From a virus (Duplodnaviria; Heunggongvirae; Uroviricota; Caudoviricetes), in IMG/VR virus record IMGVR_UViG_3300008114_001632: 64,000 nucleotides of DNA. The stretch is one strand, 5' to 3'. Position numbers and translations under genes: made by a program. This document shows, in pieces, positions 14,846-62,764 of this stretch. How positions within the stretch are numbered: the stretch's first letter is position 1; each line of letters starts with the position of its first letter. The notes under the pieces are model-generated. The model made no database searches, was not told the origin of the DNA, and saw only the letters and a list, made by a program, of their open reading frames with translations.

Positions 14846-14921
14846 TGGTGCCGCCTCCCCGGATCGAACAGGGTTCCTCGGATTTTCAATCCGTTGCTAT
14901 GACCACATCAGCTAAAGCGGC
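14846..14921 (-). tRNA. tRNA-Phe(GAA)
   Basis: Hand-folded cloverleaf; anticodon loop TTGAAAA; CCA encoded. Confidence 0.75.
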
Positions 14922-15057
14922 AAAAATAAAATGTAGTAGGTTGAGACAAAACTCAATTAGTTTGCGTCACGATCTTTAACGACAGCGAGCTTATCTCTAT
15001 GAGACCTCTACTATCCGCAACACCTTTTACACAGCACCTAGCTGGTTACTACAAATT

Positions 15058-15131
15058 TGGGGTGAAGTCGGGAATCGAACCCTGGTCTACTGTTTCACAG
15101 ACAGTCGTGTTACCACTACACTAACAACACC
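15058..15131 (-). tRNA. tRNA-His(GUG) with G-1:C73
   Basis: Anticodon loop CTGTGAA; an extra 5' G pairs with C73; two U:U mismatches in the acceptor stem. Confidence 0.65.
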
Positions 15132-15137
15132 ATTGAT

Positions 15138-15212
15138 TGGCACCCCTGGATGGAATCGAACCACCGTCCCCACGTTCGTAGCATGGTATCCTATCCATTG
15201 AACGACAGGGGT
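15138..15212 (-). tRNA. tRNA-Arg(ACG)
   Basis: Anticodon loop CTACGAA. Confidence 0.7.
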
Positions 15213-15219
15213 ATATATT

Positions 15220-15294
15220 TGGCCGGCCCTGAGAGGATCGAACTCCCACCGTCGGTTTCGAAGACCGAAATGATATCCATTTCACCAAGGGCCG
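15220..15294 (-). tRNA. tRNA-Arg(UCG)
   Basis: Anticodon loop CTTCGAA; C1-G72. Confidence 0.65.
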
Positions 15295-15317
15295 TATTAC
15301 CATAGAAAAACACACTC

Positions 15318-15414
15318 GGCTCCCCTTACAACCTTGTTCCTGTCAATTCAGGATGAAACTGGATGAACCCAGAGGCTCCCCTTGGTTGTTTGTATCTGTC
15401 AATTCAGATTGAAA
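15318..15414. repeat. ~40-bp direct repeat, two copies (GGCTCCCCTT...CTGTCAATTCAG...GAAA)
   Basis: Copies at 15318-15357 and 15374-15414, lying between tRNA genes. Confidence 0.6.
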
Positions 15415-15427
15415 GTGTGTTTATCTA

Positions 15428-15503
15428 TGGTAGGAGCACCGGGACTCGAACCCGGAACTGGCAGATTAAAAGTCTGCTGTGATAACCATTTCACCATACT
15501 CCC
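15428..15503 (-). tRNA. tRNA-Lys(UUU)
   Basis: Anticodon loop CTTTTAA; perfect T stem. Confidence 0.75.
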
Positions 15504-15507
15504 GTAT

Positions 15508-15583
15508 TGGTCCACCCGGTGAGATTCGAACTCACACCTCATTGATTAAGAGTCAAGTGCGCTACCGTTAACGCTACAAGTGG
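15508..15583 (-). tRNA. tRNA-Lys(CUU) (tentative)
   Basis: Anticodon loop CTCTTAA; paralogous to the tRNA-Asn at 22008. Confidence 0.55.
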
Positions 15584-15757
15584 TTGGTCGTAATTAAATT
15601 GATTTAATGTGCCAACCAGGACCAATACGGGGTCAAGGTTGACACTAACGTTTACTTGAACGTTTCATGTCATTCTCCTATTTTAAATTTTTGTCAATAA
15701 AGTAAATTAAAGCTACTATCATAAGTAAAACTACGATCGCCCCATTTTGTTTTCTCC

Positions 15758-15949
15758 TTAATAAGATGCGTAATCACTAAACTTAGGAAACTCAAGACGA
15801 TCACGCTCAACTACCTTTATTTCATATTCATCTATATTGTCATCATAGAATTTAATCTTAAATGTGTCTTCGTCTATTTTTTCTAATATTTCGCAGTCGA
15901 CAAAATACGATCCGTACATACTAGTATCAAGATATCTAATCGTTGGCAT
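15758..15949 (-). CDS. hypothetical small protein
   Basis: AAGGAG RBS. Confidence 0.4.
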   Translation of the reverse strand: MPTIRYLDTSMYGSYFVDCEILEKIDEDTFKIKFYDDNIDEYEIKVVERDRLEFPKFSDYASY

Positions 15950-15967
15950 ATATTTCTCCTTTAAAGT

Positions 15968-16043
15968 TGGTAGTGATGGTCGGACTCGAACCGACGATAA
16001 ACTCCGTATGAAGGAGGTACATTAGCCGCTATGCTACATCACT
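15968..16043 (-). tRNA. tRNA-Met/Ile2(CAU)
   Basis: Anticodon loop TTCATAC. Confidence 0.7.
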
Positions 16044-16044
16044 A

Positions 16045-16118
16045 TGGCAGGGGTACTAGGGTTCGAACCTAGACTAACAGAGTCAAAGTCTGTGGTGCTA
16101 CCATTACACTATACCCCA
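16045..16118 (-). tRNA. tRNA-Gln(UUG)
   Basis: Anticodon loop CTTTGAC; U1:U72. Confidence 0.65.
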
Positions 16119-16240
16119 ATAAATTTGGCACTTCGTTAGCCACACCGCTTTGGACACGGATCTAGACCCCTGCTTCCACAGGACTTATAGGCTTCAATAC
16201 TACATTCCGCTACGAAGCCCGAGCGGATTGTTGCAGTAAC

Positions 16241-16318
16241 TGGAGCACAGGGTGAGATTCGAACTCACGGTTTTGCGGATTTGCAATCCACTGCATTGGG
16301 CCTCTCTGCCACCTGTGC
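16241..16318 (-). tRNA. tRNA-Cys(GCA)
   Basis: Anticodon loop TTGCAAA. Confidence 0.65.
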
Positions 16319-16325
16319 GTATTAC

Positions 16326-16400
16326 TGGCCTCGCCTACAGGAATCGAACCCATATTCGTAGGGTAGAAGCCTACTGTATTATCCATTATACTAAAGCGAG
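16326..16400 (-). tRNA. tRNA-Arg(UCU)
   Basis: Anticodon loop CTTCTAC. Confidence 0.7.
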
Positions 16401-16407
16401 TTATACT

Positions 16408-16481
16408 TGGCGTACCTCCAGGGACTCGAACCCCGACGAACAGTTTTGGAGACTGTGATGCTGCCATTACATTAGAGATAC
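16408..16481 (-). tRNA. tRNA-Trp(CCA)
   Basis: Anticodon loop CTCCAAA. Confidence 0.75.
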
Positions 16482-16488
16482 ATTAATT

Positions 16489-16563
16489 TGGTAGCCACGG
16501 ACAGTTTCGAAATGTCGACCTATCGCTTATCAAGCGAGTGCTCTTCCTCTGAGCTACGCGGCT
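16489..16563 (-). tRNA. tRNA-Ile(GAU)
   Basis: Anticodon loop TTGATAA; unusual T arm. Confidence 0.6.
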
Positions 16564-16568
16564 ATGTT

Positions 16569-16654
16569 TGGTGGAGATGACTGGAGTCGAACCAGTAGTG
16601 CCCGAAGGGCGGCGGATTTACAGTCCACTGGGGTTACCAATTTTCCTACATCTC
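16569..16654 (-). tRNA. tRNA-Tyr(GUA), long variable arm
   Basis: Anticodon loop CTGTAAA. Confidence 0.75.
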
Positions 16655-16714
16655 CAAACTTAGTGACACTCTCCGCTATGCTTTTAGACGCCGTCGCAGG
16701 GCGAATGAAGAGTG

Positions 16715-16794
16715 TGTAGTTAAGAACACTAATAACGCCTTTTACAAAGTTCTGGGCTATGAGTCCAGTCGTCCCTATAGTGTTCTTAACTACT
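16715..16794. repeat. 16-bp perfect inverted repeat (GTAGTTAAGAACACTA / TAGTGTTCTTAACTAC) with 46-nt loop
   Basis: Reverse-complementary arms at 16715-16731 and 16778-16794. Confidence 0.6.
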
Positions 16795-16899
16795 CTAGGA
16801 TTTTAACATCTGTGTTGTCGCCACAGACTTCATCCCCTAGGCCGCCCATTTGCTAGTTTAAAGTGATAGCAGGATCTCGTTTCCTATAGCACTAAAAGA

Positions 16900-16946
16900 A
16901 AAACCCCCGGAGTATTTTACATTCCGAGGGTCTTTTTGTTTTTTGA
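16900..16946. terminator. bidirectional rho-independent terminator
   Basis: CCCCCGGAG...TCCGAGGG hairpin flanked by an A-run and a T-run. Confidence 0.55.
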
Positions 16947-17095
16947 GCTGTTACTGGTTATGCGTAACTTGCTCCTACAGAAAGGCCCTCGCCTGGTAGT
17001 CGATACCAGCGAATGCAAAACATCTGATGTTTTCTAATTTGCTTAAACATTTTGATCATCTTTCTTTCTGTTAGTTAATTTCTTACTATGTGTAT

Positions 17096-17124
17096 AGTAT
17101 ACTGTATTTATTTATCTCTGTCAA
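17096..17124 (-). promoter_or_regulatory. sigma70-like promoter TTGACA-17-TATACT (minus)
   Basis: Hexamers with 17-nt spacer, upstream of the tRNA array. Confidence 0.55.
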
Positions 17125-17194
17125 GAGATTTTCTTTAAAAAGTGACAAAAATATTGTTGTATTTTTGCCACACTCTTGAATACGGAAACATTTC

Positions 17195-17269
17195 TGGTAC
17201 CTGGTCACGGTTTCGAACCGCGGACCTTCGCCGTGTAAAGGCGTTGCTCTACCCCTGAGCTAACCAGGC
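17195..17269 (-). tRNA. tRNA-Val(UAC)
   Basis: Anticodon loop TTTACAC. Confidence 0.7.
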
Positions 17270-17276
17270 AAATTCT

Positions 17277-17951
17277 TTAGTCCTTACGACCACCAAATAG
17301 TTGTAGTAACATTAAGAACAAGTTGATAAAGTCTAAGTACAAGCTAAGAGCGCCTGCAATTTCTGCCTTACCATCATTGTCGTAACTAACCATCTCACGA
17401 ATCTTTTGTGTGTCGTATGCTGTTAAGCCTAAGAACACAATAATTCCGATAGCACTAATGACCATTTGAAAAACTGTACTACCAATAAAAATATTGATTA
17501 TACTTGCAATAACAATCGCAATCAACCCAATGAACATAAATTGGCCAACTCCGTCCAAATTACGTTTAGTGAAGTAGCCATAGCCACTCATTGTAGCAAA
17601 TAGAACGGCAGCTCCCATGAATGCGCTTACAATGCTTCCCATGTTATATACTACAAAGATTGTAGCAAAACTTAGACCCATTAATGCGGCAAATCCATGT
17701 AAAAATAGCTGTAACGCACTCTTACTCATTTTGTCCATTGCAAAGCTAACGCCAAGAATGGCTACAAGCGGCGCAAAGATTACAAGCCATTTCATTGCGC
17801 CTGTAAAGAAAAATTCCATCAGCGTTGTATTTGATCCTACAAGATAACTTACAATCATTGATGTGATAACTGCCAGTGCCATATGTCCGTAAACACGGCC
17901 CATTGCACTATTAATCTGCGATGCAGAACGAAAAACACCTGTTGCATACAT
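17277..17951 (-). CDS. Bax-inhibitor-1 / YccA (TMBIM) family membrane protein
   Basis: 7-TM profile with BI-1 family conserved C-terminal region. Confidence 0.7.
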   Translation of the reverse strand: MYATGVFRSASQINSAMGRVYGHMALAVITSMIVSYLVGSNTTLMEFFFTGAMKWLVIFAPLVAILGVSFAMDKMSKSALQLFLHGFAALMGLSFATIFVVYNMGSIVSAFMGAAVLFATMSGYGYFTKRNLDGVGQFMFIGLIAIVIASIINIFIGSTVFQMVISAIGIIVFLGLTAYDTQKIREMVSYDNDGKAEIAGALSLYLDFINLFLMLLQLFGGRKD

Positions 17952-18597
17952 AAGTTTGTCTCCTTTGTAAGATTACTTATAAAAAAACGAAAGTTAGCAA
18001 GTAAGTAATGAACTGTGCAAGGTGCAAACGGGCTGAGGTTACTCTAGGCCCTAAGCAAATTACAATATGCAAAGCACAGTGGCTTGCGTATTTCCGAACA
18101 GCAAATCACAAGTTCGATAGATTCGGGGCATACAAACACGATCAGTTTTCAAGACTGATTGCCAGTATTGGAGTCATCGCATGAAGCGATAACGGTGTTC
18201 ATCCTCATCTCTCGCCTTCTTCCGGGTAGTTTACTGTTACCAGCATACTACCAAAACCTTATAGGTGCTCTCTGTTGGAATCGAACCAAACTGTTTAACT
18301 CCGTATCTTCCTTGCACGTTCAGCAGTTAGTCGACTTAGTACCTACTGGTGTTCTCAAGTGTAGTTAAACTTCAAAGAGCATTTATAAAGTGTCTAGCTA
18401 CTCACACCACATGAGCCCTAGACTGAGCGGTTACTCTGTCCATAACATTTATTCTTTTGGAAAGGTGCTAAACCTCACCTAATGCGTCCCCGGATTCCCT
18501 ACACGGGATCGGAAGGCCAATGCACTACACGCCTAGCACTCTTTATGGTGACTGCCCCACCCCCTGTGTATAACGGGCAAGGGAGCCCGGGTTTTCC

Positions 18598-19170
18598 TTA
18601 GATCAATTCTTCGTGCTTAAGAATGTCCACAGCCTTACCACTTAGGGCAATAGTTGTACGAACATTAAGCTCTAAGAGCTCGTCCTGCAATTTCTGCTTG
18701 GCCTTTTTGGCTTCTGCTACTTTTGCACGGAATGTATCTACATCTTTGCGAGTCAATACAGAAGTACTAACTTCATCACTGTGGCCGTACAAACTTGCAC
18801 GAGTGTCTTCTTTGCGGTTCCGAATTTTATTCAACTTGCCCTCAATGACTTGAGCAGACTCACGAACGTCATGAGCTGTTAGACCTGAAAAGAATTGGAT
18901 ATCTTTCTCAAGCTGAGCCAAGTCTGCCAACTTTTCATTGACACCTGCTTGTGCATTTGCACGGCTCACTGCCTTGCGAATTTCGTACAGCACATCTGTC
19001 AGTGCTACACGACGAAACACATTGCTGTTAAATTCCTGAGCAGCCTTAGATATTTCAGCTTCAGCCTCTTGGAACTCGTTGATGCGAATTGTTTGTGTCA
19101 ACGTGATACTTTTAACAGTATCGTTGATGCTGTTCTGAAGTGCGCTTGCTTTACGAAGTGTAAGTTCCAT
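18598..19170 (-). CDS. coiled-coil hypothetical protein
   Basis: 190-aa helical ORF; promoter-like element at 19199-19225. Confidence 0.4.
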   Translation of the reverse strand: MELTLRKASALQNSINDTVKSITLTQTIRINEFQEAEAEISKAAQEFNSNVFRRVALTDVLYEIRKAVSRANAQAGVNEKLADLAQLEKDIQFFSGLTAHDVRESAQVIEGKLNKIRNRKEDTRASLYGHSDEVSTSVLTRKDVDTFRAKVAEAKKAKQKLQDELLELNVRTTIALSGKAVDILKHEELI

Positions 19171-19240
19171 GTTTGTGTCCTTTTCTCTATGTGTTAATTG
19201 TATATGATTTGTGTCTACTTGTCAAGTATTTTTTAATGTC

Positions 19241-19330
19241 TGGCGGAAGCGGTGAGATTCGAACTCACGGACCCTTTCGAGTCTTTAGTTTTCAAGACTA
19301 ACGCAATAAGCCGGGCTCTGCCACGCTTCC
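19241..19330 (-). tRNA. tRNA-Ser(UGA), long variable arm
   Basis: Anticodon loop CTTGAAA. Confidence 0.7.
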
Positions 19331-19344
19331 TTTGAAAATAAAAC

Positions 19345-19423
19345 TGGTTGCGGAGGCAGGATTCGCACCTGCGATCTCTAGCTTATGAGACTAGCGAGGA
19401 CGACTGGACTCCTCTACTCCGCT
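19345..19423 (-). tRNA. tRNA(CAU) - Met or lysidine-Ile; atypical (A1:A72, T-loop TGCGAAT)
   Basis: Anticodon loop CTCATAA. Confidence 0.55.
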
Positions 19424-19619
19424 TCAAAATATTATACAGCTGACAACTCATTAGTACTTCCATCGTTATAAGCACCATTCACCCGAATTAACAAGCTCGA
19501 GCGGGACTCGGTACGTCACTTGGGATACTAGTCCAGTTAGCAACCAATCTGCGCCGATCTTCCGATCAGCCGGGAGTTGAACCCGTCCCCTTCTACTATA
19601 TCAGTCCTTCGAAGAAACC

Positions 19620-19648
19620 TTTATAGCGTGACATTCTCTTGCTGACAA
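19620..19648 (-). promoter_or_regulatory. sigma70-like promoter TTGTCA-17-TATAAA overlapping palindrome TGACAACGAATTGTCA
   Basis: Hexamers 17 nt apart; perfect 6-bp inverted repeat at 19643-19658. Confidence 0.4.
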
Positions 19649-19799
19649 CGAATTGTCATGTGCATAACATTTCTGCTATTCTGAAACACACTACGACATT
19701 GTTATACAACCAGCTCTAATTGCTGTTTGTGGTAATGTGTTTTAGAATAGTGTTAAGACTGAGATTACATCTTAACCATAAGCACCTCTAGCATTACCG

Positions 19800-20510
19800 T
19801 ACACCTTGCGAGTATACGTTCTCTAGACATCCACTAAGTCCATATCACTATGTAACCTAGTCTGCTTACAGTATCGCCGTTTTAAGTCAGGCAGTAGACT
19901 TGACGCCATATGCTATTCTACACCATCTATTCCGTTAACCTTGCGAGCTATTCGAGTGCGCTAACACCCTACGAAACTTCCAGTATAAACTAATGTTACC
20001 TTGCGAGCTTCATTAGACTTGATTGTGTTACCACTCAAGTATTAGATACTTTTCACATACGACCGAGGCAGTCTTTGCATTTTTGTTTAAATGATCGGAT
20101 TTGAACCGACAGCATTCTTCTTAACAGGAAGATGATCTACCATTGATCTACATTAACCTACCGCGATGAGCTGCCTCAGTTGCTTCATACTCTTTTGGAA
20201 TACAAAATACAACTCACCACATACCTTTTGCCTCGCGAGCTACTCAGTGATGTTTCACGATCGGTGTACTGTATTACTACAGCCCACTAACCATTTACAT
20301 TGTATACGAGCTCTTAGGTGCGACCCCTCGAACAAGTACACTACCCTTTCTCATACCAACTAACTGATTGGTTTTATATGGAAGTCAGCACCACCTGTTA
20401 CTTTTCACTGCCCCGTGTTCCTTGCGGCACGTCGAACAATGTTCTTTCCCATACATCAGCTTTGCTGTTACATCCACCGGTCTTATGAGTGAACGCTACC
20501 TCGCGGTAGT
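19800..20510. repeat. array of >=6 degenerate copies of motif (T)TACCTTGCGAG(C) in an ORF-free region
   Basis: Copies at 19801, 19935, 19995, 20229, 20416 and 20494, with diverged flanks. Confidence 0.55.
20086..20160 (-). pseudogene. degenerate tRNA-Asn(GUU)-like pseudogene
   Basis: D, anticodon (CTGTTAA) and T arms fold; acceptor stem 5/7; no CCA. Confidence 0.4.
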
Positions 20511-20650
20511 GAGCAGGCTTGTTTACGTGAACCATTGCTGGCGCTAGTATGTAGGCATTCTAGCTTTGGGTGTGTCGCCACACTTATTCTTTGTAAACGG
20601 CAAGCCGCCTACAGGATGATAAACCACCCTTAAATTCTTAACATGTGTCT

Positions 20651-20679
20651 ATTTTAGCAAATTTTTACTGTCTTGTCAA
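20651..20679 (-). promoter_or_regulatory. sigma70-like promoter TTGACA-17-TAAAAT reading into the ORF-free repeat region
   Basis: Hexamers with 17-nt spacer. Confidence 0.45.
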
Positions 20680-20708
20680 CATCTTTTTAAAAATATTTCT
20701 AAAACATT

Positions 20709-20782
20709 TGGAGCGGGTAGCGAGAATCGAACTCGCGAATAAACCTTGGCAAGGTTTCAGGTTACCATTACATCATACCCGC
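20709..20782 (-). tRNA. tRNA-Gly(GCC)
   Basis: Close to E. coli tRNA-Gly(GCC); anticodon loop TTGCCAA. Confidence 0.8.
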
Positions 20783-20787
20783 ATATT

Positions 20788-20862
20788 TGGTGGACCGTCG
20801 GGGGATCGAACCCCGACCTAAGCCTTGCAAAGGCCCCGTGCTCCCATTATCACTAACAGCCC
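20788..20862 (-). tRNA. tRNA-Ala(UGC)
   Basis: G3:U70 identity pair; anticodon loop TTTGCAA. Confidence 0.8.
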
Positions 20863-20868
20863 AAAAAA

Positions 20869-20946
20869 TGGTCGGAGTACAAGGATTCGAACCTTGGACC
20901 CCCTGGTCCCAAACCAGGTGCGCTAGCCAGACTGCGCCACACTCCG
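20869..20946 (-). tRNA. tRNA-Pro(UGG)
   Basis: C1-G72; loop TTTGGGA. Confidence 0.7.
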
Positions 20947-20947
20947 A

Positions 20948-21172
20948 TTATACTTTTCTTAGATACTCTCTACCAATTTTGCCTTCTTGAATTTCAAGCA
21001 GTGCAGAAACTGGCGCATTAACTTGGGTAGACATTTCGTCGTTCCTGTGTTTCCTTGCTATTTCTCTAGCTCTAACTGAAGCAATTAATACTAGATCAAA
21101 TCTACCACCAACATTTTCAACACATTTATTAGTATCAATAGTTGGACCACGACTTAAAGTTTTTGCTTTCAT
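20948..21172 (-). CDS. rpoZ: RNA polymerase omega subunit (RpoZ)-like protein
   Basis: GGRFDLVLIASVRAREI and LLEIQEG match E. coli omega GNRFDLVLVAARRARQ and ALREIEEG. Embedded in the tRNA operon. Confidence 0.6.
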   Translation of the reverse strand: MKAKTLSRGPTIDTNKCVENVGGRFDLVLIASVRAREIARKHRNDEMSTQVNAPVSALLEIQEGKIGREYLRKV

Positions 21173-21188
21173 ATCTACCTTTTAAAAT

Positions 21189-21262
21189 TGGAGCGGGATA
21201 TCAGAATCGAACTGATGACCGAAGATTGGAAATCTGCTGTTTTACCATTAAACTAATCCCGC
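21189..21262 (-). tRNA. tRNA-Gly(UCC)
   Basis: Anticodon loop TTTCCAA. Confidence 0.7.
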
Positions 21263-21273
21263 TTACTAACATT

Positions 21274-21356
21274 GGTGCCCCAGGTCGGACTCGAACCGAC
21301 ACGCCTTGCGGCACTGGCTTCTAAGACCAGCGTGGCTACCATTACACCACCGGGGC
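21274..21356 (-). tRNA. tRNA-Leu(UAG), long variable arm
   Basis: Anticodon loop CTTAGAA. Confidence 0.7.
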
Positions 21357-21370
21357 AAAAACTAACACTT

Positions 21371-21444
21371 TGGTGCCCCTACACAGAATCGAACTGCAAA
21401 CTACGGATTACAAAACCGTCGTTATACCATTTAACTATAAGGGC
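21371..21444 (-). tRNA. tRNA-Thr(UGU)
   Basis: Anticodon loop TTTGTAA. Confidence 0.7.
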
Positions 21445-21497
21445 AAAAACTTTCTATATTTTAATTGTACACTCTTTACAATCAAAGTCAACTAATA

Positions 21498-21574
21498 TGG
21501 CGCACCGTAGGGGACTCGAACCCCTGGCCTCTTGCGTGACAGGCAAGCGATCTAACCAACTGAGCTAACGGTGC
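21498..21574 (-). tRNA. tRNA-Asp(GUC)
   Basis: Anticodon loop CTGTCAC. Confidence 0.8.
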
Positions 21575-21829
21575 AAAATCTTTAATAAATTGTTTGAGGA
21601 AGTTCTTGACACGCATCACCAACTTGCGTCAAGACCTCATTACAGGCCTAGTAGTTCCGCCGCCTTCCTGGAGTTTGGAATAGTTCTTGCCCTTTGACTC
21701 GATGGTGTCTCGTCATACTCTAGAACCCTCCTGCTTCATGGGTATCAAGGCCGAGCATTTCTGCTACGCAATCACCTTTTCGTTCACCCCTAGCGGACTA
21801 GGTAACCTTAAACAACTTACTAAAAAACT

Positions 21830-21904
21830 TGGTACACGATACGAGAATCGAACTCGTCTTTCCGCCTTGAAAGGGCAGCGTCCTAACCGATAGACGAATC
21901 GTGC
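21830..21904 (-). tRNA. tRNA-Glu(UUC)
   Basis: Anticodon loop CTTTCAA. Confidence 0.7.
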
Positions 21905-21912
21905 ATTTAATT

Positions 21913-22002
21913 TGGCGGAGCGTCAGGGAGTCGAACCCTGTGACCCTTTTTACGTGATCTACGGTTTAGCAAACCGCTGCCTTACCATCCGGCCCACGCT
22001 CC
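21913..22002 (-). tRNA. tRNA-Ser(GCU), long variable arm
   Basis: Anticodon loop TTGCTAA. Confidence 0.7.
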
Positions 22003-22007
22003 TAAAT

Positions 22008-22083
22008 TGGCTCCTCAGCGTGGGATCGAACCACGGACACCTTGATTAACAGTCAAGTGCAACTACCGCTGTGCTACTGAGGA
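22008..22083 (-). tRNA. tRNA-Asn(GUU)
   Basis: Anticodon loop CTGTTAA; perfect acceptor stem. Confidence 0.8.
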
Positions 22084-22190
22084 ATAAATCTGCTTTCAAC
22101 TGTACACTTTTGTACACAGATGAAAACAGATTAATCTGTTTCCGTATTCAACTTTTTAAAGAACGTTTGTAAACTTGTTACAGTTTACGT

Positions 22191-22219
22191 AGTATAACAC
22201 CGAAAAAGTTCTGTGTCAA
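22191..22219 (-). promoter_or_regulatory. sigma70 promoter TTGACA-17-TATACT for the tRNA operon
   Basis: Hexamers with 17-nt spacer. Confidence 0.6.
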
Positions 22220-22283
22220 CTACTTTTTAAAATCTTTTTACTTGAACAACTCTGCAGCCGCTTTGTTGTTTAAGTAAGTGTCT

Positions 22284-22312
22284 ATTGTATTGCCTTATTG
22301 CTTGCCTGTCAA
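22284..22312 (-). promoter_or_regulatory. second tandem promoter TTGACA-17-TACAAT
   Basis: Hexamers with 17-nt spacer. Confidence 0.5.
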
Positions 22313-22337
22313 CTGTTTTTTTGTTGTTTTTACGCAA

Positions 22338-22371
22338 CAAAAAACCCTGGGTGTTTAGTCCAGGGTTTTTA
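22338..22371. terminator. bidirectional rho-independent terminator
   Basis: CCCTGG-GTGTTTAGT-CCAGGG hairpin between A6 and T5. Confidence 0.7.
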
Positions 22372-22566
22372 AAGTTTGTTAGTGCTTACTTACAACTTCA
22401 TAACCCTAGTCATGGTGGCGTCACTGCCTGGATTCTCTGATCCAAGTGTTGTTGACGCTACGGGGGATAGTGTTACGAATAGCATTGAAAGCATTTCCTT
22501 TTTCATATATTTTATTTATCCCAGTTCTAAAAAACTACCTTATAATAGGCTCAAAACGGAGATTTG

Positions 22567-22944
22567 TCAACCAACCTCTTGTATGTTTGAAATGTTAAGT
22601 TCAACTGCTTGAACTCGATCATATCGAAAACTACGCCAGTTGTCAGCGTCTATGTCCCAAACATTGATTGTGCCAGGCTTGCTTGGCTTTGAACTGTTGG
22701 ATGGACGTGACTTTTCTGGAATATAATTCAAACTTTTTGTACAGGTCATAATTCTTTGATCACCGTCTAGTTTGAGGAACGTCACTCTTAGGATCTGTTC
22801 TTTGAGCATCTGGGTCAGGGCTTCCTCTGTTGGGATCCCTTTTAGTGCCGCCATTGTATCTTGTACCGTAGATTCGGTCCCATCCACTGCTGTATTTTGC
22901 ATCATCTGCGCCTTTTCTTCTTGCACTGCCTTTTCCTCCGTCAC
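22567..22944 (-). CDS. hypothetical protein
   Basis: ORF upstream-adjacent to clpP in the same operon. Confidence 0.4.
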   Translation of the reverse strand: MTEEKAVQEEKAQMMQNTAVDGTESTVQDTMAALKGIPTEEALTQMLKEQILRVTFLKLDGDQRIMTCTKSLNYIPEKSRPSNSSKPSKPGTINVWDIDADNWRSFRYDRVQAVELNISNIQEVG

Positions 22945-22947
22945 TCA

Positions 22948-23565
22948 TTATCGTTTCTCTACAACTTTATCTGCTAAACCGTAATCAACCGCTTCTTGTG
23001 CATTTAAGAAAGTATCAAATTTCATTGTTTCAAAAAGCTCATCGTATTGTTTGCCTTTGGTGTTGTGTTTGACATACAGCTCGGTTAATCGCTTGTTGAG
23101 TTTTTTACTTTCTTCCATTGAACGAATAGCATCTTCAAATTGAAGTTCTTGTACATGAACTGAACCACGTGTTCCAGGAGTACCTGAACTAACTCGATGT
23201 ATCATAGTACGGCTTTCAGGCAGTACTACTCGCTTACCTGCCGTGCCTGCTTGTGCTAGGAACGAGCCCATTGAACATGCCTGACCCATGACAATAGTAC
23301 GAATATCACATTTGATGTACTGCATTGTGTCGTAGATAGCTAGTCCTGCGGTAACTGCACCGCCAGGCGAATTAATATATAGGTTAATGTCTTTGTCTGG
23401 ATTCTCTGCTTCTAAAAATAATAACTGTGCTACAATTACATTAGCCATATTATCTTCTACAGGGCCGTTGAGCATAACAATTCGATCTTTGAGCAAGCGG
23501 CTGTAAATATCATATGAACGCTCGCCGCGAGTCTCTTGTTCAACAACCATTGGGATTAGTGGCAT
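22948..23565 (-). CDS. clpP: ATP-dependent Clp protease proteolytic subunit ClpP
   Basis: Full-length ClpP with the Ser-His-Asp region (GQACSMGSF...MIHRV). Confidence 0.9.
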
Positions 23566-27189: not shown

Positions 27190-27611
27190 CAGCTTAGACC
27201 TGCTAGAAGTTTATATTTTTCCCAAGCGAGTTGTACTGAGGGGTTAGATGCAACTTCTGTTTCAGGAGCAAACGTTTCTAACCAGTAGTAGGGCAATCGT
27301 CGAGGGTGAGACCCAAACTTGCGAGGTTGGTGCAGTTTACCAGTTTCCCAAAGTTCAATGCTTACGCTACGAAATCGATCTTCATCCTCTGCAGGATAGT
27401 CCATCCATTCTGGATTACTAAGTGGGTTACCAAAAGTTTGGCCGCCCCCGTATCCTTCCCAGATACCTTTCCATTGATCAGCATCTCTCGGATCAAAATC
27501 AGTGCGAGTGATCAACACCAACACATCGTCAATGTCTACTTTTCCGTCAACAATATCACGCACACATCGGCTGTAACTCAGTCCAATCTTCATTTCGTAC
27601 TCTCTTCGCAA
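27189..27611 (-). CDS. hypothetical protein
   Basis: ORF. Confidence 0.4.
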   Translation of the reverse strand: MRREYEMKIGLSYSRCVRDIVDGKVDIDDVLVLITRTDFDPRDADQWKGIWEGYGGGQTFGNPLSNPEWMDYPAEDEDRFRSVSIELWETGKLHQPRKFGSHPRRLPYYWLETFAPETEVASNPSVQLAWEKYKLLAGLS

Positions 27612-28191
27612 TAAGTTTATGAATGCCTGGGTTTACTTTTAATACATGCGGCATCATCTCATGTCTAATATAGTTACGAGTATAACAGATATTTGCATTA
27701 CTGTCATCCTCTATATACTCAATGTTATTTAAATTTGTCCACAGTTCGAAGTCCCTCTTTCTGGTTAAGCGAAACGGTCGTACTACATTTTGCCGAGTGT
27801 ACGGAATAATTTTTGCTGTACCATGCATACTACTCCAAATCCAAGTCTCTACACAATCATCCAAATGGTGTGCAGTTACTACAGTATGGCCTTTCCAAGC
27901 TTCACCATTGAACCAAGCATAGCGTTCATTACGCCACCATTCTTCTTTGCTCATATTTTTTGGACATTCGCCTTCAATAGTGTGTTCTCTGTATCGAACA
28001 TCAGTATACTTGGTACGGCATTGTTCTCTAAGCCAAGCACCAGCTTTTTGTCCATGCTCAGTTTTATGATTAAAGTAGGCCACAGTTACACGATGATTTC
28101 TACGCAAGAAATCTAGTGCAGCCATTGAGTCTACACCGCCTGAACAGGCCAGTACAATATCACGAGGGAGTTTGCCCTGTAGCTTAATCAT
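27556..28191 (-). CDS. PP-loop ATPase, tRNA(Ile)-lysidine synthetase (TilS) N-domain-like
   Basis: SGGVDS PP-loop plus the HHLDD motif characteristic of TilS. Confidence 0.6.
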   Translation of the reverse strand: MIKLQGKLPRDIVLACSGGVDSMAALDFLRRNHRVTVAYFNHKTEHGQKAGAWLREQCRTKYTDVRYREHTIEGECPKNMSKEEWWRNERYAWFNGEAWKGHTVVTAHHLDDCVETWIWSSMHGTAKIIPYTRQNVVRPFRLTRKRDFELWTNLNNIEYIEDDSNANICYTRNYIRHEMMPHVLKVNPGIHKLIAKRVRNEDWTELQPMCA

Positions 28192-42140: not shown

Positions 42141-44186
42141 TTATTTACTTGTCGCTATAAAAACGCCGTTCCAATCTTTAGGTAGAGTTTGAGTCTGCTG
42201 GAACTCACAACGCTCTATCCACATGTCGTAATACTTGTCCATTTTGCCGTCAAACTGACCTTTTAGTTGTTTACACATGCTAATAGCCGTACTAAACTTT
42301 TGTCCTCTGTATGCACCGTGCATTGATTCGTGTATTTTTTTAGCAACATGATACGTATCAGTGATATCATCTAATACTGTATAGATAGCAATTCCTACAC
42401 TCTTACCTTTTACAGCAAGATCATCAATCTTAAGGAAGAAGAAGTCATCTCCACAGCGATCAACTGTTGCGCCGCCAACTAGCAACAAGCATCCATACTC
42501 TTTACATTTACTTTCAATACGGGCAGCAGTACTAACAGCATCACCTAGTACATCGTAGCTGTGTCTTGCAGTTGATCCCATCTCTCCAATATATCCCAAC
42601 CCTGTATTAATACCAGCACCCATGCCAACGGCAGGTCTTCCTTGAGGTATAATGATTTCTTCATTAAATTTCTCCACTGCTTTAAGCATCTTCAATCCTG
42701 TGCGTACTGCTGTAGCAGGATGGTTCAAATCTTCAATAGGTGCATTATGTATATGCATACTAGCATCACCAATGTACTTAATAATCATACCGTCTGCATC
42801 TAGTACAGGTTGTGTAATGGCATCCATGTAGCCGTTCATTATTTTTGTAAGACCTGCAACGTCATCTCCAAAACTTTCACCTAAGGGTGTAAAGCCGCGT
42901 AAGTCTGAGAACAGTATACTGACTTCTTTCTTAACACCCTTCTTAATTAAGTCTGGATTTTCTTGTAACAGTCTAACTACTGTAGGGCTAGCATAGCCTG
43001 CAAATTGTTTCTTGATTGCTTGTTTCTGTAAGAACTCGCTTATAAACTTAATGCCATAAGCATGAAGCATAACCAGAACAAGCCCGACCACAATACCAGT
43101 TGAATCGAAGAGCCAACTAAACTGTGCATAAGCATAGGAGCCAGCGAATACACTAGTCCCAATAATAACAACACCTGAAATAATACCAACATAAGTCCAC
43201 CTTGTTAAGAATAATAATAGTATACCTGCTAATACTAGTGTTAAGATTTCTACACCGTTGGCATAATCTGGTCTCTGTATAACTATACCGTTAATCATTG
43301 TAGCAATAACACTAGCCTGCACAGCATGTGGGAATACAGCACCCATACTGGTTGGTACAGGATTACTGATACCAGCTGCGGTTGGACCAACAATAACAAT
43401 AGCACCATCTAGGTTTTTAGGCAACTCAAGTAAACTAACATTTTTACTTTGTTGACTCCAATCAATCCATACCCGACCTAAGTTATCTGTAGTAACAGGA
43501 CCAAACTTAGGTATACGCATTTTTTCAACACCGCCTTCAAAAAGTTTGATTTGAAAGGTTGAATCGCCAGCTGCTACTCGCAGTGTTTCCATAGCTATGC
43601 TAGGATAAAGTTTATCGCCAACTGCAACGATAAGAGGTAATCGACGATTCACTCCGTCAACTTCAGGCATAGTTGATACAATACCAATTCCTGCTGCTGA
43701 ATTTTCTAACTGCGGTACGTTAGCAATAAGGCCCGGGTATTGTACAATTTGATCTAACCACTCTGGCCCTAGTACAGCACTGCCTGGGTTGCGTGGTATA
43801 TTTTTAGTTTTATCAGCAGGCACTGATCCTAGTACTACAGGATATTGTTTAAGAGCTGAGGCAAGAGTTGAGTCGCCACCAGTGCGATCAGGCTCAGCCA
43901 TAAGCACATTGAGAACGACAAGGCCAGCACCACGATCATACAAATCTTTAATAATTTTAGCATATTCTGCCCTGGGTAATGGCCATTGGCCGTATTTGTC
44001 TAAAGCAGCTTCGTCTATGTTAACTGTATAGATGTTATTTTCTGTAGGTGCTTTAGAAGTAATTAATGTATCAAAGTAGCGTAGTCTTACACTTTCAACG
44101 AATGTAGGATCTGCTATTCGTATGCCTACTACTAACGCTAGAGTTAATAGAGCAGTCCATGGACTTAAAAGTATTTTTTTAATCAT
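42141..44186 (-). CDS. CHASE2 sensor-domain adenylate/guanylate cyclase (class III)
   Basis: N-terminal periplasmic domain plus TM helices. C-terminal cyclase block (FSDLRGFT...GDA, YDV.GD.V..A.R.E). Confidence 0.7.
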   Translation of the reverse strand: MIKKILLSPWTALLTLALVVGIRIADPTFVESVRLRYFDTLITSKAPTENNIYTVNIDEAALDKYGQWPLPRAEYAKIIKDLYDRGAGLVVLNVLMAEPDRTGGDSTLASALKQYPVVLGSVPADKTKNIPRNPGSAVLGPEWLDQIVQYPGLIANVPQLENSAAGIGIVSTMPEVDGVNRRLPLIVAVGDKLYPSIAMETLRVAAGDSTFQIKLFEGGVEKMRIPKFGPVTTDNLGRVWIDWSQQSKNVSLLELPKNLDGAIVIVGPTAAGISNPVPTSMGAVFPHAVQASVIATMINGIVIQRPDYANGVEILTLVLAGILLLFLTRWTYVGIISGVVIIGTSVFAGSYAYAQFSWLFDSTGIVVGLVLVMLHAYGIKFISEFLQKQAIKKQFAGYASPTVVRLLQENPDLIKKGVKKEVSILFSDLRGFTPLGESFGDDVAGLTKIMNGYMDAITQPVLDADGMIIKYIGDASMHIHNAPIEDLNHPATAVRTGLKMLKAVEKFNEEIIIPQGRPAVGMGAGINTGLGYIGEMGSTARHSYDVLGDAVSTAARIESKCKEYGCLLLVGGATVDRCGDDFFFLKIDDLAVKGKSVGIAIYTVLDDITDTYHVAKKIHESMHGAYRGQKFSTAISMCKQLKGQFDGKMDKYYDMWIERCEFQQTQTLPKDWNGVFIATSK

Positions 44187-47345: not shown

Positions 47346-48593
47346 TCATTTTGGTCTGTGTTCTGAAAGCACGTCAGCTCGCACATACCCCTTACGCTTC
47401 TCTGCGTCTACTACATAATGCCACCCCTCCGGACCTGGAGAAATGATATTAAATTCTGTTCCCTTTTTCAATTGCCATGTTCGTTGACTTTTTTCATTTG
47501 GTTCTTTGTATACAAACGAATCTTCTTTAAGATATCTAGAACTCCACAATTGAGCGGGTGGCTTAACTACTGGAGCAGTATTTGTATTTGTTTCTACTTT
47601 TTCTACAACTACTAAATGTTCTGGTTGTATAGGAACTATCCTTGTTATTTTTTCTGCTTTGGGCTCGACTGTTTGGCTTGCTCCATTGCTTTCTTGCTTG
47701 ACGGGCTCGATCGGTGCGGGTGGTAAGGGCTCTGGGGCTCCTTGGGGTGCTTGTGAGGTTTGTGGTTGAACCAGCTCATCTTTCTTTTCCTCCTTTACTA
47801 CAGGCACTTCTTGTGTTACAGATTTTTTAAATCTCCACATTCCTTTCTTTTCGCCTTCAATGATCATGTCATATACTGCTTGTTCTATAGCAACACGAAC
47901 AGCATATGTTGTAGGTTCATTTAGAGCCTGCCCGTTTTCTAATTCTAGTGCTTTGGTTCCAGCATCAACAAATCTTAATACGCCAACGTTATGTTGTGTG
48001 CTATAGATAGTTTTGCTCACAGCATTAGAAATTAATACTTCCCCACTGTTTACACTTACTAGTCTAAGACTAATTACAATTTCATCTACACGATATTGTT
48101 GACTTCCGCCAATACCTAAGAATCGTGCGCCGTTGCCGCCACTGCGTATGTTGCTGTCGTAGCCAATGATACCACCTTCGATCATAATTCCTGCCACAGT
48201 CATTGGCTTTAATGGTCTAGCATCTTTACCTTCATAAACCTCGCGTTGATTACGTATCAACTGTCGCTCTTTAATAAGGTTATCTAATCCCACACGCTCT
48301 ACAACTTTAAACCAATTTTTTGAGTCTTGAAGTGCTTTGATTAAAAATACTTCAGATCCTTGTGTCACTGCCTTTGAAAACACAGCTAACCTATCATTAG
48401 GTTTCATTTGTCCTGTCTTGTCTGTGAATCCGTAAACTGCAATGGTCATTGGAGGACCGTCTAACTGTGGTATTTTATTAGTAAGACTCTCTCTTGGTGT
48501 TAGAGCCACAGCATCTTCCCTAGCCGCATCCATGTGTATGGTGGCGCATCCTGAAAGAACAGTGACAAGTAACAATGATAATATTAATTTCAT
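47346..48593 (-). CDS. csgG: curli production assembly/transport lipoprotein CsgG
   Basis: LSGC lipobox; CsgG-family core. Confidence 0.75.
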   Translation of the reverse strand: MKLILSLLLVTVLSGCATIHMDAAREDAVALTPRESLTNKIPQLDGPPMTIAVYGFTDKTGQMKPNDRLAVFSKAVTQGSEVFLIKALQDSKNWFKVVERVGLDNLIKERQLIRNQREVYEGKDARPLKPMTVAGIMIEGGIIGYDSNIRSGGNGARFLGIGGSQQYRVDEIVISLRLVSVNSGEVLISNAVSKTIYSTQHNVGVLRFVDAGTKALELENGQALNEPTTYAVRVAIEQAVYDMIIEGEKKGMWRFKKSVTQEVPVVKEEKKDELVQPQTSQAPQGAPEPLPPAPIEPVKQESNGASQTVEPKAEKITRIVPIQPEHLVVVEKVETNTNTAPVVKPPAQLWSSRYLKEDSFVYKEPNEKSQRTWQLKKGTEFNIISPGPEGWHYVVDAEKRKGYVRADVLSEHRPK

Positions 48594-52421: not shown

Positions 52422-52886
52422 TTACTCGCTGTCTATAGTTAGTGCTTCAACTTTAGAAGGTGCTTGAATAGCAATCTTCTTAGGTTGTAGTGCTTCTGGA
52501 ACTTCACGCTTCAAACTAATGTTGAGCATGCCTAGTTCTAGTGTAGCACCTTCTACTTCAACATGGTCAGCAAGAGTAAATTCTCTACGGAAATTGCGAG
52601 CACCAATTCCTTTGTGTAGATAATTTACTGTGTCATCTCCCTTCGGAGAGGTCCCCTCAATGCGTAGGATATTTTTGTCCTTGGTAATTTCCAAGTCATC
52701 CATACTGAACCCAGCGACTGCGATACTAATTGTATAGTCGTCTTCGCTTAGTTGTGCAATGTTGTATGGAGGATATCCCTGCGATGCTGAGTTAGCAAAT
52801 TGTCTTTCTAACTCATTGAACATTCTATCGAATCCGATAGTAGCTCTGTGAAATGAGGGTAAGTCTAGAGTTGTAAGTCTTGTCAT
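52422..52886 (-). CDS. small heat-shock protein (Hsp20/IbpA family)
   Basis: Alpha-crystallin domain profile. Confidence 0.8.
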   Translation of the reverse strand: MTRLTTLDLPSFHRATIGFDRMFNELERQFANSASQGYPPYNIAQLSEDDYTISIAVAGFSMDDLEITKDKNILRIEGTSPKGDDTVNYLHKGIGARNFRREFTLADHVEVEGATLELGMLNISLKREVPEALQPKKIAIQAPSKVEALTIDSE

Positions 52887-52944: not shown

Positions 52945-54111
52945 TTATTTACCATTGCTTGCATAAACAGCATTAAATTGCTGAGTTACACGAACAAAGG
53001 TTGTGCATTTGCTAAGTTGCTTTAGCGTCTTAGCGCCTGCATACGTACAGGTACTACGCAAACCGCCTAGTATGTCCTGTACAGTATTTAGTACCTTACC
53101 TTTATAAGGTACTAAAACTTCTCGCCCTTCGGCGCTACGGTATTCTTTTAAACCACCAAAATGTTTTAGGTTGGCTGCTTCAGAACTCATACCATAAAAT
53201 TCTACAAATTTCTTTTCTTCTATTTTGCAGCCAGTCCATGTCCACTCTGACTGCCCGTCTTCTAGGATACGCTGTCGGGCCTGTAACTCGTTAGTTTCGT
53301 AGAGTCTTGTAATGACTTCTCCGCCGCCTTCATCGTGTCCAGCCAGCATCCCTCCGAGCATAACAAAATCCGCTCCTGCGGCAAATGCCTTGGCGACATC
53401 TCCTGGACAGGTACAACCCCCGTCTGCAATAATATGTCCCCCCAAACCATGAGCAGCATCAGCACACTCCATAACAGCACTAAGCTGAGGATAGCCAACG
53501 CCAGTTTGAATACGAGTTGTGCAAACGCTCCCAGGACCAATGCCCACTTTAATAATATCTGCTCCACTTAAAATTAACTCCTCAGTCATTTCGCCTGTCA
53601 CTACATTGCCAGCAATGATTACGATTTCTGGATATGCTTCACGAAGCTTTCTAATAAAAGTTGCAAACCGCTCGGAATAGCCGTTAGCAACATCCACACA
53701 AACGTATTTAATGTTTGTTAGTGTTTCGCTGTACACATTAGCAAACTTATCGTAGTCAGCTTGTGTAATTCCCATTGAGTATGCTACTCGATGAGTTCTA
53801 TAATATTCATCTGCATTAAAGAAGTCAATTAATTCTTCTGCACTATATGTCTTAACTAGACATGTAAACATGCCTTCATGTGCAAGAATGTCTGCCATAG
53901 CAAACGTACCAACTCCGTCCATATTAGCAGCCATGATTGGAACACCAGTGTATTGATATTCTTCCCAATTTTCGTGCTCAAAAGCAGGACTGTAATTTCT
54001 AAATTTAAACTTACGGAATAAGTCTACTTCCTGCCGAGAGCCTAATGTACTACGCTTAGGACGAATTAACACATCTTTGTAGTCTAACTTTATATCTTGT
54101 TCAATTCTCAT
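52945..54111 (-). CDS. guaC: GMP reductase (GuaC; IMPDH/GMPR family)
   Basis: Matches E. coli GuaC end to end ([40 protein letters not shown]). Confidence 0.9.
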
Positions 54112-62270: not shown

Positions 62271-62735
62271 ATGAGAAAAACTATTCTCGCAGGCGCCATC
62301 GGTGTCTTATTACTAACTGGCTGTGCATCTGACAACTATCAACAATACGCCCGAACTCAAGAAAACATTGCTCTTGCAAGGGCAGAAGCAGAAATTGCTC
62401 GATACAAAGCATTAGAAGCTATTGCCAATTCAGGTGATACTACAGCTCGAGTAGCCGCGGTAATTGCACTACAACAAGGTTCTCCACAAAACAACAGTCC
62501 TAGAGTTGAACAACCCACTAGCACCGGTGACACGGCTTTACGTTGGGCTAGTGTAATTGTGCCCAGCCTTACTCAAATTTACGGTATTGGAAAAAGCACT
62601 GATCTTGCCATAGTCAACAGTAACAATAATAAAGACATTTCTATTAACACTAACCAAACTATGTTAGGGTTTGGTAAACTTATTGTTGATCCAATTGTTG
62701 GCACAGGCGACGACGTCCTTCTGTACCCACAATAA
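62271..62735 (+). CDS. lipoprotein
   Basis: LLTGC lipobox; plus strand. Confidence 0.5.
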   Translation: MRKTILAGAIGVLLLTGCASDNYQQYARTQENIALARAEAEIARYKALEAIANSGDTTARVAAVIALQQGSPQNNSPRVEQPTSTGDTALRWASVIVPSLTQIYGIGKSTDLAIVNSNNNKDISINTNQTMLGFGKLIVDPIVGTGDDVLLYPQ

Positions 62736-62737
62736 AG

Positions 62738-62764
62738 AAAAGCACCCGAGGGTGCTTTCTGGTA
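62738..62764. terminator. bidirectional terminator AAAGCACCCGAGGGTGCTTTCT
   Basis: Hairpin plus T-runs on both strands. Confidence 0.65.

Follow-up and report, generated by a model that had tools for sequence, protein, structure and literature searches.

A homolog of the RNA polymerase omega subunit encoded within a phage tRNA array

Introduction

Bacteriophages are known to retune the RNA polymerase (RNAP) of their hosts by means of sigma factors, inhibitors, antiterminators, and covalent modification. Examples are the sigma factors gp55 of phage T4 and gp28 of phage SPO1, AsiA of T4, gp2 of T7, gp39 of a Thermus phage, and P7 of a Xanthomonas phage. A homolog of a core RNAP subunit is an addition to this repertoire that we found undescribed. 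Here, we analyze such a homolog: a small relative of the omega subunit (RpoZ) encoded among the transfer RNA (tRNA) genes of a phage of the class Caudoviricetes (IMG/VR record IMGVR_UViG_3300008114_001632). The whole stretch of DNA that was analyzed, 64,000 nucleotides (nt) in length, is called the window.

Virus-encoded relatives of omega are known from other settings: nucleocytoplasmic large DNA viruses encode Rpb6/omega homologs, for example, Rpo19 of vaccinia. Units that mix tRNA genes with protein-coding genes are likewise established; they include thrU-tyrU-glyT-thrT-tufB and secG-leuU in Escherichia coli, the tRNA cluster of phage T4, and the tRNA punctuation of mitochondrial transcripts. 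Omega itself lies at the interface that forms site 1 for guanosine tetraphosphate (ppGpp), and what it does besides assembly is a matter of continuing debate. It serves as a chaperone of the beta-prime subunit and latches it onto RNAP (PMC7700224).

An omega homolog in a phage genome

The gene is an open reading frame (ORF) on the minus strand, with its ATG at 21172 and a TAA stop codon at 20950-20948.

20948-21172, minus strand: omega (RpoZ/Rpb6-family) ORF, 74 amino acids (aa) plus TAA; identified by profile hidden Markov models (HMMs), AlphaFold2, Foldseek, and the ratio of nonsynonymous to synonymous substitution rates (dN/dS)

Its product is MKAKTLSRGPTIDTNKCVENVGGRFDLVLIASVRAREIARKHRNDEMSTQVNAPVSALLEIQEGKIGREYLRKV. 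A preliminary description of this DNA had likened the ORF to omega on the strength of 2 motifs, both of which the product contains exactly as quoted, and had proposed a search with the Pfam profile PF01192. That search returns 41.6 bits against a cut-off of 26 (E 1.3e-10) over profile positions 1-51 of 53; the match thus spans the whole domain and is not limited to a short low-complexity stretch. TIGR00690, the NCBIfam equivalog model for rpoZ, matches over its positions 4-59 of 60 and scores 32.4 bits, where 23.6 is the cut-off. Among sequences of the Protein Data Bank (PDB), phmmer finds 22 omega chains, the best 19 of them at E ~1e-5, including those of Vibrio, Francisella, E. coli, and Pseudomonas; a designed protein that also appeared is non-significant (E 4.5). 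A profile built from the phage family finds the omegas of Vibrio, E. coli, Pseudomonas, and Caulobacter at 30-39 bits, above the single-sequence scores. With this profile, proteobacterial omegas are the only ones matched; omega chains of Gram-positive bacteria, Thermus, and mycobacteria give no match at E <= 0.01.

A structure prediction, also suggested at the outset, agrees with the sequence searches. AlphaFold2, run with a 31-sequence alignment, yields a monomer model (pLDDT 82, pTM 0.70) with helices at residues 14-21, 24-45, 53-62, and 70-73: the N-terminal helix, long second helix, loop, and third helix of the omega fold. When this model is compared with the PDB by Foldseek, RNAP omega chains make up all 50 of the top 50 matches, with best TM scores of 0.6-0.7. 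Membership in the omega/Rpb6 family, as first proposed, is therefore borne out by 2 curated HMMs, sequence matches to omega chains of known structure, and the predicted fold.

The gene is also maintained. Across 328 unsaturated pairs of phage omega genes, the median dN/dS is 0.20, and in saturated pairs, the proportion of nonsynonymous differences (pN) is 0.36 against 0.75 for synonymous differences (pS); phage omega is therefore under purifying selection. A conserved length of ~75 aa and a Shine-Dalgarno-like element are further signs of a real gene. The ORF is thus a genuine, selectively maintained, phage-encoded homolog of bacterial RNAP omega. Its codon usage is strongly biased toward A/T-ending codons, with a G+C content at third codon positions (GC3) of 0.16 compared to 0.317 +/- 0.051 in 28 other ORFs of the window, and the predicted fold of its mRNA has a z score of -2.8.

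A conserved core with an altered N-terminus

The protein was compared with an alignment of 315 non-redundant family sequences plus the omegas of E. coli and Acinetobacter. Seventeen positions of phage omega are identical to E. coli omega: R24-F-D-L-V-L29, A31, R34-A-R36, V55, A57-L58, E60-I61, G64, and L71. Most of these core positions are 80-95% conserved in the family (V55 and I61 at ~73-74%, A35 and E60 at ~70%). Judged from this pattern, phage omega keeps the 2 conserved helices by which cellular omega clamps beta-prime.

The N-terminus differs. E. coli M1-A2-R3-V4-T5 aligns to G9-P10-x11-I12-D13 of the phage family, such that M1-A2-R3 corresponds to G9-P10-T11 in the window ORF, which lacks the N-terminal Met-Ala-Arg (MAR) by which proteobacterial rpoZ contributes to ppGpp site 1. 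The position equivalent to Arg3 varies in the family (E, Q, or S). Approximately 8 extra residues precede G9, with a conserved Ser7-Arg8 (75-77% of sequences); the motif S-R-x-x-x-[IVL]-[DN] is present in 233 of the 315 sequences, a MAR-like one in only 8. In addition, Arg52 of E. coli is replaced by Leu59. The N-terminal change matters because, in E. coli omega, Ala2 and Arg3 account for most contacts with the 5' diphosphate of site 1 ppGpp (PMC13192712). The standard RNAP without site 1 combines rpoZ(del2-5) with the beta-prime substitutions R362A, R417A, and K615A (PMC13192712), and the signature of ppGpp binding that is cited for proteobacterial omega is the "MAR motif" (PMC6416229).

A protein-coding gene abutted by tRNA genes

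The omega gene lies in a tRNA array that comprises 27 genes on the minus strand (14846-22083; ARAGORN and Rfam). Its immediate locus reads as follows, in the direction of transcription:

21491-21464, minus strand: sigma-70-like promoter candidate TTGACT-16-TACAAT (10/12), between tRNA-Asp and tRNA-Thr; consensus match only
21371-21444, minus strand: tRNA-Thr(UGU), upstream in the putative omega unit (ARAGORN and Rfam)
21273-21356, minus strand: tRNA-Leu(UAG), upstream in the putative omega unit (ARAGORN and Rfam)
21189-21262, minus strand: tRNA-Gly(UCC), directly upstream of omega, CCA end encoded (ARAGORN and Rfam, 64.3 bits)
21173-21188, minus strand: 16-nt leader ATTTTAAAAGGTAGAT, from the CCA end of tRNA-Gly to the ATG
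21182-21177, minus strand: Shine-Dalgarno-like AAAGGT within the omega leader
20947, minus strand: lone nucleotide between the omega TAA and the 5' end of tRNA-Pro
20869-20946, minus strand: tRNA-Pro(UGG), directly downstream of omega (ARAGORN and Rfam, 61.8 bits)
20788-20862, minus strand: tRNA-Ala(UGC), downstream in the putative omega unit (ARAGORN and Rfam)
20709-20782, minus strand: tRNA-Gly(GCC), downstream in the putative omega unit (ARAGORN and Rfam)

The placement of the ORF between tRNA-Gly(UCC) and tRNA-Pro inside the array, noticed from the start, is exact: all 3 genes share a strand, and the gaps are 16 nt upstream and 1 nt downstream. The minus strand carries no terminator-like site from 21491 to 20869, hence none between the promoter candidate and omega. 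Omega is in this sense a tRNA-flanked cistron, abutted by tRNAs on its own strand with no promoter or terminator in between. From the consensus promoter match, tRNA-Thr, -Leu, -Gly, omega, tRNA-Pro, -Ala, and -Gly could be a single transcription unit. An RNase P cut before tRNA-Pro would give the omega mRNA a 3' untranslated region of 1 nt.

The arrangement extends to relatives. Embedding was scored by ARAGORN on all fetched loci, 85 of which could be examined on both sides. In nearly all of these, the omega gene shares its strand with the tRNAs around it; the typical spacing is 14-27 nt from the end of one tRNA to the ATG and 1-10 nt from the stop codon to the start of the next. An AAAGG-type element precedes the ATG by 5-8 nt in nearly every related copy. 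The flanking genes differ by sub-clade (Met|omega|Pro, Met|omega|Arg, Thr|omega|Asn, Gly|omega|Trp, Asn|omega, and omega|His); the arrangement is therefore maintained, and no particular neighbor is. Over-long gene calls among representatives of clusters at 50% identity start with peptides such as "GSSP", "RVRPGAP", and "SIPLPRS", which we read as tRNA genes translated as protein and, as such, as independent support for the embedding. The chromosomal housekeeping context of cellular proteobacterial rpoZ, gmk-rpoZ-spoT, is absent from the window and from all ~85 related loci; it was seen only in a mislabeled bacterial record, described below.

The array as a whole has features of its own. Within or beside it, on the gene-coding strand, are 6 sites that resemble promoters; each combines a perfect TTGACA with a spacer of 17 nt and a -10 element close to consensus (11/12). 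By consensus match, they suggest multiple strong sigma-70-type promoters for the array.

22570-22542, 22312-22284, 22219-22191, 20679-20651, 19225-19197, and 17124-17096, minus strand: TTGACA promoter-like sites

In 26 of the 27 array tRNA genes, CCA stands at or within a few nt of the 3' end; the CCA ends of these tRNAs appear to be encoded in the genome.

Distribution of the phage omega family

The family is large. A protein database holds 223 clusters at 90% identity, nearly all of ~75 aa, with 60-96% identity among the 120 clusters listed; they are mostly metagenomic, a few also have NCBI entries, and no contig that carries one exceeds 332 kb. When 1.84 billion representatives were searched exhaustively with phmmer, 214 clusters (50% identity) reached E <= 0.001; at library-wide significance, this search reaches no cellular omega from the phage protein. 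The donor lineage can be placed, from sequence, no more finely than "closest to Proteobacteria." Relatives are encoded on 168 IMG/VR viral contigs, some of 200-364 kb, and the longest contigs that bear family members measure at most 332-387 kb. On contigs of 89, 224, and 332 kb, the surroundings of omega are phage-like and tRNA-rich. The match to P0149, a repetitive, adhesin-like protein of 2,289 aa in which 21 stretches matched, was rejected as spurious.

Carriers outside this group did not hold up. A motif scan of 185,579 species of bacteria and archaea, each represented by one genome, yielded only one locus: a 7.5-kb contig of a "Crocinitomicaceae" metagenome-assembled genome (MAG; JBDNIA010000359.1, L087). 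With 17 tRNAs plus omega, it is a mis-binned fragment of a phage tRNA array. Among 50,697 deposited phage genomes, tblastn with 3 diverse family queries found no genuine omega homolog. The only significant matches were to records of "Acinetobacter phage MD-2021a," and these fall inside gmk-rpoZ-spoT, which marks the sequence as bacterial chromosome; the record examined (L001, CAKLQH020000003.1, 144694-156909) carries pil genes, ispH, and gmk-rpoZ-spoT. Weak matches to Rhizobium phages (E 0.2-0.8) were set aside as chance. The large, diverged subfamily is thus viral, as far as the contexts of its members could be examined; a few distant MAR-like members (for example, P0189 and P0248) may be either cellular or viral. 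In this manner, the gene provides a clean marker of a phage group and exposes mis-binned or mislabeled records, as with the "Crocinitomicaceae" MAG and "Acinetobacter phage MD-2021a."

These results leave little room for a passenger or an artifact, be it a recently captured host rpoZ that does nothing, a chimera created during assembly, or an ORF that arose by chance between tRNAs. Phage tRNA arrays often hold small ORFs without known function, and the GC3 of the omega ORF is well under that of other window genes, as might befit such an origin. Against it stand HMM scores above curated cut-offs, purifying selection, and an identity to cellular omegas of only ~35%; a presence on 168 viral contigs and in 214 clusters; and a position kept in ~85 loci, never that of gmk-rpoZ-spoT. 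We consider this explanation extremely improbable and effectively refuted.

The preliminary description had also called a phage-encoded omega unusual, and so it proves: the deposited phage records contain none that is genuine, a search of PHROGs with the ORF matched no family, and we found no paper on the subject. No description of a phage-encoded omega was found in the literature, including papers on jumbo phages, Melnitz, and aquatic phages, where mentions of omega by symbol only could be missed. A database annotation already exists: in the automatic pipeline of the Joint Genome Institute, members of the family receive the label "DNA-directed RNA polymerase subunit omega."

A proposed action on host RNAP

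The preliminary description had seen in phage omega a possible remodeler of host RNAP assembly or stability. We favor, with moderate confidence, the reading that the protein is a functional omega that loads onto host RNAP and alters its regulation. Omega would be co-transcribed with the phage tRNAs and either translated from the precursor or freed as a mini-mRNA by RNase P and 3'-end processing enzymes. The protein would then bind host beta-prime, replacing or competing with host omega. The resulting RNAP would have an altered beta-prime/omega interface, which comprises ppGpp site 1 and a docking surface for regulators; phage transcription would be less subject to starvation (stringent) control, beta-prime would be kept folded during infection, or both. 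A more specific proposal, namely, that large uncultured phages of aquatic habitats, a widespread clade, swap in their own omega and leave RNAP blind or differently tuned to ppGpp through loss of the Met-Ala-Arg contacts, is one we advance only tentatively and think doubtful as it stands.

Several points weigh against an altered host RNAP. The binding of beta-prime is inferred, structure prediction having covered the monomer, and phage omega would have to displace omega already bound in assembled host RNAP. Conserved Arg8 might stand in for Arg3, so that sensitivity to ppGpp is kept. E. coli without rpoZ retains normal stringent control in vivo, where site 2 with DksA dominates (PMC7700224); loss of site 1 alone might therefore matter little. 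Past its -10 element, the promoter candidate at 21491-21464 runs into an AT-rich stretch, unlike classic stringently controlled promoters. Finally, the host of the window phage is hinted at only by the type of its transfer-messenger RNA (tmRNA).

The surface of the protein allows for a different role. Across the family, the median net charge is +4, compared to -1 to -2 for residues 1-66 of the omegas of E. coli and Acinetobacter; an R-x-H-K/R loop is also conserved, at R40, H42, and K/R43. Phage omega might be an adaptor that, once on host RNAP, offers a new surface to phage regulators redirecting the enzyme to phage promoters; in a variant of this idea, it is a decoy that sequesters an omega-binding host factor or poisons host transcription. 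The charge, the conserved loop residues, and the N-terminal extension would all suit such a role, and there is a precedent in GafA of the gene transfer agent RcGTA, which binds omega directly (PMC9638019); dominant-lethal omega mutants with tighter core binding are also known (PMC7700224). Against such a role, no partner gene accompanies omega across the sub-clades of the fetched loci; we consider it unlikely.

Should phage omega indeed take the place of host omega and leave RNAP blind or differently tuned to ppGpp, its supply would be tied to expression of the tRNA array through a tRNA-punctuated transcript. Replacement of a core RNAP subunit by a phage homolog would then have its first example, and viruses a new escape from the stringent response. 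In broader terms, the family points to a possible new viral counter to starvation-induced restriction, and its 214 clusters with an altered N-terminus form a natural panel of variants for the study of omega and site 1. The placement between tRNAs suggests compact expression of a protein from a tRNA transcript and raises the question of why omega is coupled to these arrays.

Neighboring elements in the array and in related loci

Other elements share the array with omega. A 190-aa, apparently helical protein is encoded at 18598-19170 (minus strand); it has only sub-threshold matches, none significant, in Pfam, PHROGs, or the PDB. Homologs are encoded within 3 kb of omega in 33 loci; every one of these belongs to the close sub-clade, and the fetched loci of more distant sub-clades have none. 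We took the co-occurrence for synteny and rejected the protein as a partner of omega.

A GOLLD RNA lies at 19756-20220 on the minus strand (RF02032, full model, 201 bits against a gathering threshold of 150) and overlaps tRNA-Asn at 20085-20157. The adjoining stretch 20221-20650 is free of ORFs and lies downstream of TTGACA-17-TAAAAT (20679-20651), a promoter-like site of the extended -10 kind that is near consensus; it may be the variable 5' half of GOLLD, which would extend the RNA to ~20643 and to ~890 nt in total. A sensitive Rfam scan of the ORF-free gaps near omega found only GOLLD and tRNAs. The ORF-free array gaps 21575-21829 and 22084-22566, which have no Rfam match at E <= 0.1, could be unrecognized non-coding RNAs or regulatory regions.

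Related loci hold further genes of transcription and translation. A DksA/TraR-type zinc finger or a SutA RNAP-binding domain (RBD) is encoded near omega in only 3-4 of ~85 loci and is absent from the window. Some relatives carry a split release-factor gene, in which a 35-aa PCRF piece precedes a product that has PCRF and RF-1 domains and is ~170-183 aa long. It resembles the programmed +1 frameshift of prfB, and genes for the peptidyl-tRNA hydrolase PTH2 lie close by; neither was found in the window.

L002 6089-6340; L005 8188-8373; L006 6297-6482: DksA/TraR and SutA-RBD examples in fetched loci
L002 7343-7450; L003 9913-10593; L005 10206-10883; L006 8315-8992: split release-factor genes in fetched loci

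As candidates for an obligate partner of omega, zf-DksA/TraR, SutA-RBD, PTH2, and the split release factor were rejected, with an occurrence of 2-8 in ~85 loci and none in the window. ARAGORN also predicts tRNA-like genes whose anticodon has 4 nt (tttt) or 2 nt (tt) (L002 1374-1448; L003 2217-2293), which could be tRNAs of the frameshift-suppressor type or mis-folded predictions.

The genome that carries the gene

The window has a G+C content of ~40%, and one strand carries nearly all of its genes. Matches to PHROGs include an endolysin and a virion-protein domain. Its features include:

Window: UvdE-like endonuclease; ATP-dependent DNA ligase
Window: protein with virion/tail-fiber domains; phosphoesterases
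Window: endolysin; Hsp20 (52422-52886); 2OG-Fe(II) oxygenase
17277-17951, minus strand: Bax1-inhibitor-family membrane protein
22567-22944, minus strand: WYL_2/Sm-like protein
22948-23565, minus strand: ClpP protease
27556-28191, minus strand: PP-loop ATPase of the TilS-like tRNA(Ile)-lysidine synthetase family (PF01171)
42141-44186, minus strand: CHASE2-adenylate/guanylate cyclase
47346-48593, minus strand: curli pore CsgG
52945-54111, minus strand: IMPDH/GMP-reductase-like enzyme
59156-61093, minus strand: B12-binding radical-SAM enzyme
62711-63172, minus strand: permuted two-piece tmRNA with tag ANSSEYALAA (best Rfam match: betaproteobacterial tmRNA, 166.9 bits)
63121-63324, minus strand: CspA-like cold-shock ORF, directly upstream of the tmRNA and overlapping the 5' end of the tmRNA match

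The genes for ClpP, the WYL_2/Sm-like protein, and the Bax1-inhibitor-family protein flank or lie in the tRNA array and, together with tmRNA and Hsp20, make up a proteostasis set. The TilS-like PP-loop ATPase fits the 2 tRNA(CAU) genes of the array. The permuted tmRNA, being of betaproteobacterial type, is a hint of a betaproteobacterial host.

The CHASE2 cyclase shares 53% identity with its counterpart in Methylophilales phage Melnitz and 35% with the one in Pelagibacter phage HTVC008M. Curli-pore genes and permuted tmRNAs, for which Melnitz-type phages are noted (PMC9004378), are both present in the window. In a megablast search of the 8 kb around omega against deposited phages, only short tRNA matches, to Xanthomonas jumbo phages, were found. 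The window is best read as part of an uncultured, tRNA-rich relative of the Melnitz/pelagimyophage group.

Gene content bears on 2 further explanations. In the first, the phage supplies extra omega as a chaperone, which keeps beta-prime folded and RNAP assembled as host expression collapses, with no change in regulation. The folding and latching of beta-prime are the established role of omega (PMC7700224), and the window also encodes ClpP, Hsp20, tmRNA, and a cold-shock protein. A mere supplement would be expected to be host-like; the phage family is only ~35% identical to cellular omegas, with a distinct conserved N-terminus, opposite charge, and diversification into 214 clusters at 50% identity, all of which makes simple supply improbable.

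In the second, omega is a subunit of a multisubunit RNAP encoded by the phage itself, as are the Rpb6 homologs of nucleocytoplasmic large DNA viruses. Some jumbo phages do encode their own multisubunit RNAPs (PMC9123017), and some of the contigs that carry omega are of jumbo size (200-364 kb). Searches of the large ORFs of the 64-kb window, itself part of a genome, with Pfam and PHROGs gave no beta- or beta-prime-like gene. The nearest isolates, Melnitz and HTVC008M, we take to be T4-like myophages that use host RNAP, and the known multisubunit RNAPs of phages (phiKZ and AR9 type) are not known to include omega. With these points against it, a phage polymerase is quite improbable, and the loading of phage omega onto host RNAP remains the reading that we prefer.

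Comparison with known systems

Phage omega is closest to bacterial omega (RpoZ; PF01192, TIGR00690), especially that of Proteobacteria. The 2 share an HMM family, a helical fold, and the core motifs N-R-F-D-L-V-L-x-A-x-x-R-A-R and V-x-A-L-x-E-I-x-x-G; the phage protein is similar in length to short bacterial omegas, and its closest relatives in the PDB are proteobacterial. Unlike bacterial omega, it is encoded in phage tRNA arrays, has ~35% identity to its cellular counterparts, and carries an eight-residue Ser-Arg extension in place of MAR; it has Leu for E. coli Arg52, is basic and not acidic, and lacks the acidic C-terminal tail. Judged by these traits, it is a member of the omega/Rpb6 family, but an atypical one relative to a cellular rpoZ ortholog, from which both its context and its MAR position differ.

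Among viral proteins, gp55, gp28, AsiA, gp2, gp39, and P7 offer a parallel in that a small phage protein at a defined site of host RNAP retunes the enzyme. They are sigma homologs or unrelated inhibitors and antiterminators; none is an omega homolog. Rpb6 of the vaccinia Rpo19 type belongs to the same Rpb6/omega superfamily and is virus-encoded, but it serves a complete viral polymerase; phage omega, by comparison, is of bacterial type, and no viral beta or beta-prime is found in the visible 64 kb.

In its placement, phage omega resembles the mixed tRNA-mRNA units, where a cistron is abutted by tRNAs of the same strand, so that tRNA processing would set the ends of the mRNA. It differs from them in being flanked by tRNAs on both sides and in an arrangement that is kept though the flanking tRNAs change. 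The pairing of GafA with omega in RcGTA is a related strategy: a virus-like element uses RNAP's omega site to control its own expression, and a link to ppGpp has been proposed (PMC9638019). GafA binds the omega of its host, whereas the phage described here supplies its own.

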